DNA of 64,000 nucleotides, from assembly GCF_003334815.1 (NCBI RefSeq), contig NZ_QOWO01000003.1; one strand, 5' to 3'. Positions within the stretch are counted from its first letter, which is position 1; each line of letters starts with the position of its first letter. The stretch comes from Escherichia coli. Lineage in GTDB: Bacteria; Pseudomonadota; Gammaproteobacteria; Enterobacterales; Enterobacteriaceae. Positions 13,254-20,749 of the stretch are shown piece after piece. Both the position numbers and the translations under genes were made by a program. The notes under the pieces are model-generated. The model was not told the origin of the DNA, ran no database searches, and saw only the letters and a list, made by a program, of their open reading frames with translations.

Positions 13254-14041
13254 TCAGATAAAGTGCTTACGCAACCGTTGAGAGAGGAAATCCAGCAGGC
13301 TGACCGTGACGATGATAAGCACCATCAGGGCGCAGGTTTGTTGGAACTGGAAACCGCGAATCGCTTCCCACAGGGTGACGCCGATCCCGCCTGCGCCGAC
13401 CATGCCGACGACGGTCGCCGAGCGGACGTTGGATTCGAAGCGATAGAGGGAGTAGGAGATCAGCAGTGGCATCACCTGTGGCAGCACGCCGTAGAGGATC
13501 TCTTCGAGCTTGTTGGCACCGGTGGCGCGAATGCCTTCCACCGGGCCGGGTTCAATCGCTTCCACCGCTTCGGAAAGCAGCTTGGAGAGCACGCCGGTGG
13601 TGTGGATAAACAGCGCCAGCACGCCAGCACGCCAGCGAACGGGCCGAGGCCGACGGCGACCACGAACAGCATGGCGAAGACCATTTCGTTAATGGCGCGG
13701 CAGGCGTCCATCAGGCGGCGAACGGGCTGGTAAACCCACCACGGCACCAGGTTTTCGGCGCTCATCAGGCCAAAGGGGATGGAGAGAACCACCGCCAGCG
13801 CGGTGCCCCAGACGGCGATTTGCAGCGTGACGGCCATTTCGGTGAGGTAATCCTGCCACTGGCTGAAATCGGGCGGGAAGAAGTCGGCGGCGAACGTCGC
13901 CATGTTGCCGCCGTCTTTGATCAGCGTAAGCGGGGCCATTTCCGCGCCCTGCCACGAGACGACCAACACGGCGAGTACAACGGCCCAGCTCAGAAGCGAG
14001 AACCAGCTGCGCTTGGGTGGGGCGATGGTGATGGTTTGCAT
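13254..14041 (-). pseudogene. phnE: phosphonate ABC transporter permease, interrupted by a frameshift (two overlapping ORFs in different frames)
   Basis: ORFs 13472..14104 and 13254..13622 are both hydrophobic permease-like and overlap out of frame; tandem 8-bp repeats gccagcac x2 plus gccagcga at 13615..13638 sit at the junction. Confidence 0.85.
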
Positions 14042-14056
14042 GTTTGGCTCCGGTCT

Positions 14057-14144
14057 GTAGGCCGGATAAGGTGCTTGCACCGCATCCGGCATCAACGCCT
14101 GCACATTGTCGGATGCGACGCCGGGGCGTCTTATCCGACCTACG
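14057..14144. repeat. REP/BIME palindromic element pair (phnD-phnE intergenic)
   Basis: Seen directly: gtaggccggataaggtgcttgcaccgcatccggcatc and cggatgcgacgccggggcgtcttatccgacctacg. Confidence 0.85.
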
Positions 14145-16615: not shown

Positions 16616-16890
<275 letters not shown>

Positions 16891-16909
16891 CTTACCGATC
16901 ACAATACAA

Positions 16910-17245
16910 TCAGTTCTTTTTCACAAACTCAGATTTCAGTTTCATCGGACCAAAACCGTCGATTTTGCAATCGATGTTATGGTCGCCTTCAACCAGGCGG
17001 ATGTTTTTCACTTTGGTGCCAATTTTCAGCATCGAAGAGCTACCTTTCACCTTCAGATCTTTAATGATGGTAACGCTGTCGCCGTCAGCCAGCAGATTGC
17101 CGTTAGCATCTTTAACGATCAGCTCGTCGCTTTCCTGTGCAGGTTCTGCGTCGTTCCATTCGTAGGCACATTCCGGGCAGATGTACATGCCGTTATCTTC
17201 GTAGGTGTATTCGGAGTTGCATTTTGGGCAGTGTGGTAATGACAT
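16910..17245 (-). CDS. yjdM: PhnA-family zinc-ribbon protein
   Basis: ORF 16910..17392; start at internal ATG ([17 protein letters not shown]..., 111 aa); CPKC...CPEC zinc-ribbon motif. Confidence 0.88.
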
Positions 17246-17645
17246 GTGGATTTCCTCAAAAGTCAGCAGGGCAAAAGCGCCAAAAAACGGCAGATTGCCG
17301 AAAAAGGCCGCAATTATACACAAAATCCCTGAGTTTGTCGGGGGTACTGCTGATTTTAGACGACGATCGTTTTCATTTGAAAGGAAACGCAAAAAGAAAA
17401 TAATCTTTTTGCCTCTATTTATTATTTAAGATAATGTTAATGCTCTACTTGTTCTTTTTTTAATTCACATGATATTTTTATCTTTCTGACGTTTTAAACG
17501 TATCAGAAGACGTTATTTATTCTGATAAAAAACAACACACTAAATATAAAATTATTTCTTGCAGTAATTATAAAAGCCGAAAACAGAACTCAAAAACAAT
17601 CTGGCTAAATAAAATAACAAAATTTGCTTTAAGGAAGAATTTTCT

Positions 17646-19874
17646 ATGTACACACAGACCCTGTATGAGTTAAGTCAGGAGGCTGAACGCCTGTTACAGC
17701 TTTCTCGCCAACAGTTGCAGTTACTGGAAAAAATGCCTCTCTCTGTACCCGGAGACGACGCGCCACAACTGGCTTTACCCTGGAGTCAGCCTAATATCGC
17801 CGAACGTCACGCGATGCTGAATAATGAGTTGCGTAAAATTTCCCGACTGGAAATGGTGCTTGCAATTGTCGGTACCATGAAAGCAGGGAAATCAACCACC
17901 ATTAATGCCATTGTTGGTACGGAGGTTCTGCCTAATCGTAATCGCCCAATGACTGCGCTGCCGACGCTTATTCGCCATACGCCCGGGCAAAAGGAACCGG
18001 TACTGCATTTTTCACATGTCGCGCCAATCGATTGTTTAATTCAACAATTACAACAGCGCCTGCGTGATTGCGATATTAAGCATCTGACCGATGTGCTGGA
18101 AATAGATAAAGATATGCGTGCGCTTATGCAGCGGATCGAAAATGGCGTCGCTTTCGAAAAATATTATCTGGGTGCCCAGCCTATTTTTCATTGTCTGAAA
18201 AGTTTGAATGATTTAGTGCGACTGGCGAAGGCGCTGGACGTCGATTTTCCTTTTTCTGCTTACGCCGCCATTGAGCATATTCCCGTGATTGAAGTGGAGT
18301 TTGTCCATCTAGCGGGGCTGGAGAGTTATCCCGGTCAGTTGACGTTACTGGATACCCCCGGGCCAAATGAAGCCGGGCAACCGCATCTGCAAAAAATGCT
18401 TAACCAGCAGCTGGCACGCGCCTCGGCGGTACTGGCGGTGCTGGATTATACGCAACTGAAATCGATCTCCGATGAAGAGGTCCGTGAGGCGATTTTGGCG
18501 GTGGGGCAATCGGTGCCGCTGTACGTGCTGGTCAATAAGTTCGATCAACAGGATCGTAACAGTGACGACGCCGACCAGGTGCGGGCACTGATTTCCGGGA
18601 CGCTGATGAAAGGCTGTATTACGCCACAGCAGATATTTCCGGTGTCGTCGATGTGGGGCTACCTGGCGAATCGGGCGCGCTATGAGTTAGCCAACAACGG
18701 TAAGTTACCACCGCCAGAGCAACAACGCTGGGTGGAAGATTTTGCCCATGCCGCGCTTGGCAGGCGCTGGCGTCATGCCGATCTGGCGGACCTCGAACAT
18801 ATTCGTCATGCTGCCGATCAGTTGTGGGAAGATTCGCTGTTCGCCCAGCCAATTCAGGCGTTGCTTCATGCCGCTTACGCTAACGCCTCGTTGTATGCTC
18901 TGCGATCTGCCGCGCATAAACTGTTGAATTACGCGCAGCAGGCGCGGGAATACCTGGATTTTCGTGCGCACGGGTTAAACGTCGCTTGTGAACAATTGCG
19001 GCAAAATATCCACCAGATCGAAGAAAGTTTGCAGCTATTGCAACTCAATCAGGCGCAGGTGAGCGGCGAGATTAAACATGAAATCGAGCTGGCCCTGACC
19101 TCCGCCAACCACTTTCTGCGTCAACAGCAAGATGCGCTGAAGGTGCAGTTAGCCGCCTTGTTTCAGGATGATTCGGAGCCGTTAAGCGAGATTCGTACCC
19201 GCTGTGAGACACTGTTACAGACGGCGCAGAACACCATCAGTCGCGACTTTACGCTGCGTTTTGCCGAGCTTGAATCCACCCTTTGCCGGGTGTTAACCGA
19301 TGTTATTCGCCCCATTGAGCAACAAGTCAAAATGGAATTGAGCGAGTCAGGGTTTCGTCCTGGGTTTCATTTTCCTGTTTTTCACGGCGTAGTTCCCCAC
19401 TTCAACACTCGCCAGCTGTTCAGTGAAGTCATTTCGCGCCAGGAAGCAACGGACGAGCAGAGCACGCGTTTAGGCGTTGTGCGTGAGACTTTTTCGCGCT
19501 GGTTGAATCAGCCCGACTGGGGACGGGGAAATGAGAAATCACCGACAGAAACGGTTGATTACAGTGTGTTGCAACGAGCATTAAGCGCAGAAGTCGATCT
19601 CTATTGCCAACAAATGGCTAAAGTTCTGGCAGAGCAGGTCGATGAATCTGTTACGGCAGGCATGAATACTTTTTTCGCTGAGTTCGCTTCATGTTTGACG
19701 GAATTACAGACGCGTTTACGCGAAAGTCTGGCTCTGCGTCAACAAAATGAATCGGTGGTCAGGCTGATGCAGCAGCAATTGCAGCAGACTGTGATGACTC
19801 ACGGCTGGATTTACACCGACGCCCAGCTGTTACGCGATGATATTCAAACACTTTTCACGGCAGAACGATATTGA
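17646..19874 (+). CDS. crfC: bacterial dynamin-like GTPase (clamp-binding sister replication fork colocalization protein)
   Basis: 742-aa ORF; GTPase G1 motif GTMKAGKST and DTPG G3 motif seen in translation; long C-terminal helical region; recognised as CrfC/YjdA. Confidence 0.9.
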   Translation: MYTQTLYELSQEAERLLQLSRQQLQLLEKMPLSVPGDDAPQLALPWSQPNIAERHAMLNNELRKISRLEMVLAIVGTMKAGKSTTINAIVGTEVLPNRNRPMTALPTLIRHTPGQKEPVLHFSHVAPIDCLIQQLQQRLRDCDIKHLTDVLEIDKDMRALMQRIENGVAFEKYYLGAQPIFHCLKSLNDLVRLAKALDVDFPFSAYAAIEHIPVIEVEFVHLAGLESYPGQLTLLDTPGPNEAGQPHLQKMLNQQLARASAVLAVLDYTQLKSISDEEVREAILAVGQSVPLYVLVNKFDQQDRNSDDADQVRALISGTLMKGCITPQQIFPVSSMWGYLANRARYELANNGKLPPPEQQRWVEDFAHAALGRRWRHADLADLEHIRHAADQLWEDSLFAQPIQALLHAAYANASLYALRSAAHKLLNYAQQAREYLDFRAHGLNVACEQLRQNIHQIEESLQLLQLNQAQVSGEIKHEIELALTSANHFLRQQQDALKVQLAALFQDDSEPLSEIRTRCETLLQTAQNTISRDFTLRFAELESTLCRVLTDVIRPIEQQVKMELSESGFRPGFHFPVFHGVVPHFNTRQLFSEVISRQEATDEQSTRLGVVRETFSRWLNQPDWGRGNEKSPTETVDYSVLQRALSAEVDLYCQQMAKVLAEQVDESVTAGMNTFFAEFASCLTELQTRLRESLALRQQNESVVRLMQQQLQQTVMTHGWIYTDAQLLRDDIQTLFTAERY

Positions 19875-20749
19875 CCAAGACGTTACTTGACGGCCCCGGT
19901 CGCGTGCTGGAGTCGGTTTATCCCCGCTTTTTAGTGGATCTGGCGCAGGGTGATGATGCCCGCCTTCCACAAGCCCATCAGCAGCAGTTTCGTGAACGAC
20001 TGATGCAGGAACTTCTTTCGCGTGTGCAGCTTCAGACATGGACGAACGGCGGCATGTTAAATGCGCCGCTTAGCCTGCGTCTGACATTGGTGGAAAAACT
20101 GGCGTCGATGCTGGATCCCGGTCATCTGGCACTGACGCAGATCGCGCAGCATCTGGCGCTGCTGCAAAAAATGGATCACCGCCAGCACTCTGCTTTCCCG
20201 GAGCTCCCCCAGCAAATTGCCGCCTTGTATGAGTGGTTTTCAGCCCGTTGTCGCTGGAAGGAAAAGGCGTTAACGCAACGAGGCCTACTGGTGCAGGCAG
20301 GTGATCAGAGCGAGCAAATTTTTACCCGCTGGCGTGCTGGGGCGTATAACGCCTGGTCGTTGCCTGGGCGCTGTTTTATCGTTCTGGAGGAGTTGCGCTG
20401 GGGGGCATTTGGCGATGCCTGCCGTCTGGGAAGCCCGCAAGCGGTGGCGTTGTTGCTGGGTGATTTGCTCGAGAAAGCGACACAACATCTGGCAGAGAGT
20501 ATCAATGCGGCACCGACCACGCGTCACTATTACCATCAGTGGTTTGCCTCTTCGACCGTTCCGACGGGCGGGGAGCATGCTGATTTTTTAAGTTGGCTGG
20601 GAAAGTGGACCACGGCAGATAAACAACCCGTTTGCTGGTCAGTGACCCAACGCTGGCAAACTGTCGCGCTGGGGATGCCACGACTCTGTTCAGCGCAGCG
20701 TCTGGCGGGGGCAATGCTCGAGGAAATCTTCTCTGTAAATTTGGCGTAA
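19871..20749 (+). CDS. yjcZ: uncharacterized protein, translationally coupled to crfC
   Basis: 292-aa ORF whose ATG overlaps the crfC stop (ATGA at 19871..19874); no recognisable catalytic motif. Confidence 0.85.
   Translation: MTKTLLDGPGRVLESVYPRFLVDLAQGDDARLPQAHQQQFRERLMQELLSRVQLQTWTNGGMLNAPLSLRLTLVEKLASMLDPGHLALTQIAQHLALLQKMDHRQHSAFPELPQQIAALYEWFSARCRWKEKALTQRGLLVQAGDQSEQIFTRWRAGAYNAWSLPGRCFIVLEELRWGAFGDACRLGSPQAVALLLGDLLEKATQHLAESINAAPTTRHYYHQWFASSTVPTGGEHADFLSWLGKWTTADKQPVCWSVTQRWQTVALGMPRLCSAQRLAGAMLEEIFSVNLA

Follow-up and report, generated by a model that had tools for sequence, protein, structure and literature searches.

The 64,000-nucleotide stretch of Escherichia coli DNA analysed here (the window; contig NZ_QOWO01000003.1 of assembly GCF_003334815.1) carries crfC, encoding a dynamin-like GTPase, and directly behind it yjcZ. 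This is the already described rdcA(crfC/yjdA)-rdcB(yjcZ) operon, whose role in switching from motility to biofilm is published and stands in the genome annotation. RefSeq names the two genes crfC and rdcB, gives the latter the product 'diguanylate cyclase regulator RdcB family protein' and starts it at the same TTG codon. Because this is the same locus as in E. coli K-12, with 100% identity to the DNA of strain W3110 over 3501 nucleotides (nt), the function published for K-12 applies here, and we are confident that the pair forms a GTP-sensing dynamin-like switch which activates the master diguanylate cyclase DgcE. The K-12 RdcA/RdcB system and this locus agree in gene order, protein lengths and the residues K82 and T103, with no differences. 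The core locus itself is already explained, and the fresh angle lies in the relatives of the pair, which occur in mobile cassettes together with a phospholipase. What we add to the published picture is comparative, namely the co-conservation of the pair, the geometry of the gene overlap, signs of selection on an intragenic FliA promoter and the family context.

The crfC-yjcZ pair and its conservation

A first-pass annotation, made from the sequence alone, had called two open reading frames (ORFs) of 742 and 292 amino acids (aa), and its coordinates proved exact (Table 1). The dynamin-type GTPase motifs that it recognised (G1 76-GTMKAGKS and G3 236-DTPG) are in CrfC, as are G2 (T103) and G4 (297-NKFD), within a protein that also has a Pfam Dynamin_N match and is an NCBIfam NF007368 'clamp-binding protein CrfC' equivalog over residues 1-742 (1597 bits against a cut-off of 1146). 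The 4-nt overlap of the two genes that it reported is real, but its letters are TTGA rather than ATGA, yjcZ starting with TTG. Nor was it quite right that the partner has no recognisable motif, since YjcZ matches the Pfam family PF13990 'YjcZ-like' over its full length (1e-143, residues 21-287); this family assignment is uninformative on biochemistry.

Table 1. Features of the crfC-yjcZ locus in the window, and an accessory cassette from another E. coli genome
Feature	Position	Strand	Description
REP/BIME (repetitive extragenic palindromic/bacterial interspersed mosaic element) units	16616-16915	-	naRNA4; three tandem 100-nt units in the yjdN-yjdM interval, each above the Rfam RF02564 gathering score
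Intergenic region upstream of crfC	17246..17645	+	AT-rich, GC 0.41-0.43; presumed operon promoter and 5' untranslated region
crfC (yjdA, rdcA)	17646..19874	+	742-aa soluble dynamin-like GTPase; N-terminal G domain, long helical C-terminal half
Beta-clamp-binding motif 41-QLALP of CrfC	17766..17780	+	Published; Q41A defective (PMC6374313)
Dynamin_N GTPase domain	17859..18476	+	Residues 72-277, Pfam 7e-18; contains K82 (G1), T103 (G2) and D236 (G3)
Intragenic FliA (sigma-28) promoter driving yjcZ	19619..19646	+	Inside crfC; exact match to the site TAAAGTTCTGGCAGAGCAGGTCGATGAA from chromatin immunoprecipitation sequencing (ChIP-seq; PMC4183435)
Overlap TTGA	19871..19874	+	yjcZ TTG start over crfC TGA stop; 4 nt
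yjcZ (rdcB)	19871..20749	+	292-aa soluble all-helical partner protein
Accessory cassette: dynamin, RdcB family, patatin-like phospholipase	L095 6803-11165		E. coli CFSAN064036 complete genome, CP4-like island

K82 and T103 are invariant across 17 CrfC orthologues. Outside the G domain, long helices at residues 401-505, 513-567 and 639-741 are predicted by an AlphaFold2 (AF2) model of CrfC fused through a linker to YjcZ, which was built on a paired 16-species alignment and is of low to moderate confidence (predicted template modelling score, pTM, 0.42; predicted local distance difference test, pLDDT, below 35 in the G domain; no coordinates or predicted aligned error). By sequence, CrfC weakly matches the Nostoc bacterial dynamin-like protein (2j68) and the Campylobacter dynamin-like protein (5owv) at the start of the G domain only, at about residues 54-124, and no match to the stalks of solved dynamins was found. 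There is no transmembrane-like segment in CrfC or YjcZ, the top 19-residue Kyte-Doolittle mean of CrfC (1.21) lying inside the G domain, and RdcA/CrfC has been described as soluble (PMC6510439, PMC6374313). At the hairpin position, where a paddle would be, CrfC has the conserved aromatic loop 569-GFRPGFHFPVFHGVVPHF (569-586); no membrane-binding paddle or hydrophobic tip was found in the protein. CrfC shares G1-G4 and, according to the literature, self-association with bacterial dynamin-like proteins (Nostoc BDLP1, Campylobacter DLP1/DLP2, Bacillus subtilis DynA, mycobacterial IniA/IniC), and its C-terminal half may likewise consist of long helical hairpins, whereas it is soluble, lacks a paddle and has as its output the binding of a signalling protein rather than membrane remodelling. 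Its operon partner, too, is a non-dynamin helical protein and not a second dynamin, and yjdA has been noted before as the exception to the tandem arrangement of bacterial dynamins (PMC4159319). In the Escherichia clade CrfC has 742 aa, whereas elsewhere it has ~784 aa (window compared with loci L005-L082); the shorter protein has lost 8 aa after residue 35 and, within the helical half, 36 aa after residue 512.

For YjcZ, the AF2 monomer is all-helical (mean pLDDT 64), and its core, residues 65-215, is modelled confidently. Conservation is highest at 250-275 (PVCWSVTQxWQxVALGMPRLCSA), a stretch of low AF2 confidence, and eleven arginines are invariant (R41, R43, R70, R126, R137, R167, R176, R185, R218, R271 and R277). 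The N-terminus and residues 217-269 are more confident in the fused model than in the monomer, a comparison in which the alignments differed and the fused pTM is low. A sequence search of YjcZ against solved structures gave nothing below E = 0.3, and there were no matches in PADLOC, PHROGs or NCBIfam and no Dynamin_N domain. We also considered whether YjcZ is part of a dynamin that has diverged and rejected this, hhalign of YjcZ against the CrfC profile returning a probability of 0.1%.

The pair is widely conserved. Of 5426 complete E. coli genomes, 5418 have the 3.5-kb stretch, 5401 of them at a coverage of 80% or more. A word-indexed protein search gave 227 YjcZ relatives, those listed all having PF13990 and source names from Enterobacteriaceae genera, and a scan that took a single genome from each species yielded 110, from which 80 loci of about 20 genera were kept. 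In all 80, a CrfC homologue (53-92% identity) lies directly upstream of yjcZ on the same strand. The two-gene module of dynamin-like GTPase and partner that the first-pass annotation described is borne out by this arrangement in 5401 of the 5426 E. coli genomes and in every species locus, which goes beyond chance, and crfC and yjcZ are indeed co-conserved. When the W3110 locus was added, 77 of 81 junctions kept the stop/start overlap (72 ATGA, 4 TTGA and 1 GTGA), the other four having a 2-nt gap; TTGA is confined to the Escherichia clade and ATGA is typical of orthologues outside Escherichia. The gene order yjdM-crfC-yjcZ-(kdgT-like)-proP persists in about 20 genera, with yjdM and proP as neighbours in most of the 80 loci. 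Furthermore, the pairwise divergences of CrfC and YjcZ are correlated (r = 0.94), YjcZ evolving about 1.3 times faster. Because of the pairing in all loci, the overlap, the shared neighbours and the correlated divergence, crfC-yjcZ is, judged from these sequences, an obligate, vertically inherited two-subunit unit in Enterobacteriaceae, unlike an island. One of the rare E. coli genomes that lack the pair is 19KM2326N, in which a natural deletion removed crfC, the 5' part of rdcB and much of the phn region (L001 8000-8242). A candidate 'second RdcB' in this strain (H12) turned out to be the deletion remnant of the same locus and not a paralogue.

RdcA, RdcB and the activation of DgcE

The partner had been called uncharacterised at first pass, which it is not. 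RdcA (CrfC/YjdA) and RdcB (YjcZ) are both needed to activate DgcE, by way of its MASE1 domain (Pfiffer, Sarenko, Possling, Hengge 2019; PMC6510439), and an independent genome-wide FRET-To-Sort screen in 2026 again found dgcE, rdcA and rdcB, all as mutants with low cyclic di-GMP (c-di-GMP; PMC13031359). In 2007 mutations in yjdA and yjcZ, like those in dgcE, had emerged from work on the pdeH (yhjH) motility defect, which they suppress (PMC6510439). Deletion of rdcA or rdcB phenocopies that of dgcE, with less c-di-GMP, CsgD, curli and cellulose/macrocolony matrix, with pdeH suppression and with non-additive effects (PMC6510439), so that a phenotype beyond clamp binding, in the control of motility and biofilm matrix, was already in print. 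The same is true of a physical interaction between the two proteins: in the bacterial two-hybrid assays of that study RdcA self-associates (dimerises/oligomerises), binds RdcB tightly and also binds the membrane-embedded MASE1 domain of DgcE. RdcA K82A, which does not bind GTP, is fully active, and RdcA T103D, which does not hydrolyse GTP, is dead, having lost DgcE binding and kept RdcB binding (PMC6510439). Therefore, nucleotide-free RdcA is the activator and GTP the inhibitor, and in the authors' model nucleotide-free RdcA/RdcB activates DgcE as GTP falls at entry into stationary phase. In the FRET-To-Sort screen ynjH, a FliA target (PMC4183435), was strongly associated with the RdcA/RdcB system (PMC13031359), and it may be a third component.

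As to what RdcB does within this pathway, we tentatively favour a structural coupler that holds RdcA effector-competent over a GTPase-activating protein (GAP) or exchange factor, because in the relatives described below the YjcZ domain always lies beside an effector gene and in one locus (L088) is fused to the non-GTPase sensor JukA. A somewhat unlikely alternative is that RdcB is a nucleotide-state regulator (GAP or nucleotide-release factor) that drives RdcA to its apo, DgcE-binding form, as proposed by the authors of PMC6510439, who report that RdcB binds RdcA regardless of nucleotide state. The activity of apo RdcA (K82A active, T103D dead) and the many invariant arginines of RdcB accord with such a role. 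Operons of a small GTPase and its partner do work in this manner: MglA/MglB comprises a GTPase switch and its small cognate regulator encoded in one operon, with nucleotide state gating target binding. The likeness lies in the shared working principle of a co-encoded GTPase switch and partner and is an analogy only, as there is no sequence or fold relationship and RdcA is in its active state when nucleotide-free. Moreover, no GAP-like or guanine nucleotide exchange factor-like fold was detected in YjcZ, and a YjcZ domain fused to JukA beside a patatin gene, with no dynamin called in L088, is awkward for a dedicated GTPase regulator. No dynamin cofactor of the RdcB kind has a known fold or mechanism.

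Several points weigh against the picture of a DgcE switch in which RdcB acts as the coupler. RdcB binds neither itself nor DgcE in the two-hybrid assays (PMC6510439), a poor fit to a simple adaptor, and the authors of that study favour the GAP or nucleotide-release role. The fused AF2 model is poor and defines no RdcA-RdcB interface. Salmonella, Kluyvera and Cronobacter have DgcE-type MASE1 proteins (in a rough MASE1 search that returned mostly fragments), and the searches for YjcZ relatives gave no named match in these three genera; therefore DgcE can work without RdcAB. Finally, given the published clamp and nucleoid-partition role, DgcE control may not be the sole function of CrfC.

This last role has its own claim. 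We consider it improbable that CrfC works mainly at the replication fork, in clamp binding, sister-fork colocalisation and nucleoid partition, and that YjcZ is incidental to this. The fork role is published (Ozaki 2013, as cited in PMC6374313), 'clamp-binding protein CrfC' is the name used by RefSeq and NCBIfam, and the clamp motif 41-QLALP is present in the window. However, no block of CrfC is less conserved than the one that contains this motif, and Q41, which clamp binding needs, is found in E. coli only. Other Escherichia species have PLTLPW at this position and most genera VLPLHF, and loci of Pluralibacter, Yokenella and the RIT691 type lack the segment, whereas the pairing with yjcZ is universal. 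In addition, deletion of crfC causes no growth defect and clamp binding is GTP-independent (PMC6510439), and crfC expression follows the flagellar regulon. The distribution of the motif fits the Hengge view, in which clamp binding is a moonlighting role or one specific to a lineage, and does not disprove the fork role.

Accessory dynamin-YjcZ-patatin cassettes

An exhaustive profile search returned 262 cluster representatives of the YjcZ family, many of them about 300 aa long and scoring 70-190 bits, so that the family is wider than the word-indexed search had indicated. Ten distant members led to eleven loci (L084-L094), and BLAST added one locus in a complete genome (L095); the named sources include Pontibacterium granulatum, Methylomonas, Pectobacterium, Thiodictyon, Thiorhodospira, Moraxellaceae and E. 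coli. In the distant loci the visible downstream gene is always a patatin-like phospholipase. In ten loci it directly overlaps or adjoins the YjcZ gene; the two are separated by an IS110-family element in L093, and the sequence of L094 ends at the YjcZ gene. The patatin motifs GGGxxG, GxSxG and DGG are intact in the complete copies checked, the serine motif of the E. coli cassette being GASIG. Upstream of the YjcZ gene, L090, L091 and L092 have a CrfC-type dynamin with identical GTMKAGKS, DTPG and NKFD motifs, at an identity to CrfC, over the N-terminal part, of 46% in L090 and 41% in L092, and of 32% over about 700 residues in L091, and the junctions read in these three loci are ATGA overlaps. 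A gene with a Dynamin_N Pfam match takes this place in L093 and L094, and the contig end truncates the upstream ORF of L084 and L085/L086, which shows a weak likeness to the C-terminus of CrfC.

Three of these loci also carry JukA, which consists of DUF3944 and a Cbp3-like domain and is the validated sensor of the Juk (JukA/JukB) anti-jumbo-phage system, and which is reported to pair with varied effectors (Juk preprint). In L088 (4001-5599) a YjcZ domain is fused to a JukA match (PADLOC 8e-74) and followed by the patatin, with no dynamin among the genes called around the fusion. In the E. coli contigs L093 (1165-1914) and L094 (334-1083) a separate JukA-like gene (2.6e-66) lies just upstream of the dynamin. 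JukA matches are confined to these distant loci, and in the window neither CrfC nor YjcZ matches JukA (PADLOC).

Within E. coli, the cassette of the complete genome CFSAN064036 (Table 1) is flanked by Ag43 on one side and by DUF932, antirestriction, JAB and YeeU genes on the other; its dynamin is 33% identical to CrfC and its YjcZ-like protein 31% identical to YjcZ. At a coverage of at least 80%, the cassette is present in 2442 of 5426 complete E. coli genomes (45%), in up to 5 places per genome, so that the same two-protein core precedes a patatin phospholipase in a cassette of nearly half of all complete E. coli genomes. Compared with these accessory operons (PAI-CFT073-aspV as well as 'island 8' of PMC12922286, and those of other Gammaproteobacteria), the core pair has homologous first two genes with identical G motifs and the same 4-nt overlaps. 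The accessory cassettes differ in being mobile, in their third gene, a patatin with intact catalytic motifs, and sometimes in a JukA gene or fusion. In the window, proP lies downstream and no patatin gene overlaps the end of yjcZ. The L090 cassette of Pontibacterium granulatum comes directly after bpMoxR AAA+, VWA and HEPN_RiboL-PSP genes (L090 1-2342), a neighbourhood that looks defence-island-like.

A transcriptome paper of January 2026 reported that the accessory operons, at about 30% identity to RdcAB, are strongly induced in lysogens and proposed them as putative dynamin defence systems (PMC12922286). The Juk preprint mentions patatin and 'Ras-like GTPase' fusions, and neither YjcZ nor dynamin. 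We did not find the link of JukA to YjcZ/RdcB/PF13990, the JukA-YjcZ fusion or the spread beyond E. coli in the literature searched, in which JukA and RdcB were not searched together. Hence three things look undescribed, namely the link to JukA, its fusion with YjcZ, and the distribution across Gammaproteobacteria and in 45% of the complete E. coli genomes. Should the cassette prove to be a defence system, RdcAB would clearly exemplify a signalling module and an immune module with one shared sensor-coupler core, and the NCBI name 'diguanylate cyclase regulator RdcB family' would be misleading for the accessory copies.

A more speculative proposal, which we hold to be unlikely, is that core RdcA-RdcB is an effector-less, domesticated branch of the mobile dynamin-YjcZ-patatin cassette, with YjcZ as a general coupler that joins a sensor (a dynamin or JukA) to an effector acting on membranes and with the phospholipase slot rewired to the MASE1 cyclase DgcE in Enterobacteriaceae. 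If so, the core pair might still turn a membrane- or infection-type cue into c-di-GMP.

A defence or membrane-repair function of the core pair itself, like that of Eleos (LeoA/LeoBC) or DynA, was a lead of the first-pass annotation, and we regard it as very improbable. Bacterial dynamins do defend against phage (PMC8844932), the paralogous cassettes on islands, with an RdcB-like protein, a patatin and sometimes JukA, are proposed defence operons (PMC12922286), and CrfC has weak PADLOC matches to LeoBC (5.8e-6) and LeoA (3.2e-5), at 21-24 bits. These matches, however, reflect general dynamin homology, which is distant and all that is shared with Eleos, and YjcZ has none; the scores are marginal, there is neither a second dynamin gene nor an island context, and the core pair has a demonstrated signalling role. 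Neither gene product has a PHROG match or a hydrophobic membrane segment, no patatin or JukA was found in the window (tblastn of the accessory patatin against the window, PADLOC on both proteins), the locus is core (5418 of the 5426 E. coli genomes) and keeps its synteny from genus to genus, unlike a variable island, and the known phenotypes of the pair are fully explained by DgcE. The lead therefore fails for the core pair, which has no membrane segment, second dynamin or effector gene, and has substance for the paralogous accessory cassettes elsewhere.

Expression and surroundings of the operon

Upstream of crfC there is a sigma-70-like match at 17377-17404 (10/12) and, just before the ATG, a conserved block that includes the Shine-Dalgarno-like TTAAGGAA. 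A pattern scan of the window found no FliA site in this region, the best scores across 16 genera being 10-12/16 against 13/16 for the intragenic site, and an earlier prediction of a FliA promoter in front of yjdA is wrong according to PMC4183435. Instead, FliA acts from inside yjdA to drive yjcZ (Fitzgerald et al. 2014; PMC4183435), from a site about 225 nt upstream of the TTG start with the -10 element GTCGATGA. In a fliA deletion yjcZ RNA falls from 52 to 1 and yjdA RNA from 111 to 11 (PMC4183435), and a reporter fusion of the intragenic site has FliA-dependent activity (bioRxiv 10.1101/188474). Accordingly, rdcA/rdcB expression follows the flagellar FlhDC/FliA regulon, and RdcA/RdcB have been placed in a flagellar-coregulated c-di-GMP module (PMC8669469).

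The FliA motif (TAAAGCTTT…GTCGAT) is kept in 63 of the 81 loci. Its codons have the joint-lowest synonymous variability in crfC, 0.44 where the mean is 0.71, which puts them second among 550 windows and level solely with the 5' end of the gene. This is suggestive of selection on the intragenic promoter across genera, against which it counts that the sequences compared are related and not independent.

yjcZ thus has two supply routes, the bicistronic mRNA and its own conserved transcript from the FliA promoter inside crfC. The translational coupling of the two genes claimed at first pass is a fair reading of the bicistronic mRNA, on grounds of an overlap whose geometry fits and is conserved in 77 of the 81 junctions. 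In E. coli the yjcZ start would be weak, a TTG without a strong Shine-Dalgarno sequence; RdcB would then be made by termination-reinitiation, in step with RdcA, and the FliA promoter might top up RdcB in motile cells. An NtrC ChIP-seq peak assigned to 'yjcZ-proP' (window 19350-19650; K-12 4327301-4327381), negative in the electrophoretic mobility shift assay (PMC4066584), lies about 150 nt from the FliA site by K-12 coordinates.

In agreement with the first-pass annotation, the pair sits between the phn genes and proP; yjdN and yjdM also lie in between. The repeat-rich flanks that it described hold for one side, where the REP/BIME units are separated from crfC by yjdM, and not downstream of crfC-yjcZ, where no repeats were found in the window. 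In genera other than Escherichia the interval between yjcZ and proP is about 1.7 kb longer. We considered a third operon member there and rejected it, the interval holding instead a minus-strand gene for a 331-336-aa polytopic membrane protein (L010 6924-7934, L043 6913-7908), which looks KdgT-like and is not present in E. coli. On the other side of the pair, phnE (window 13472-14104 region) is annotated as frameshifted in the W3110 record, the known K-12 phnE pseudogene, which fits a K-12-like window.

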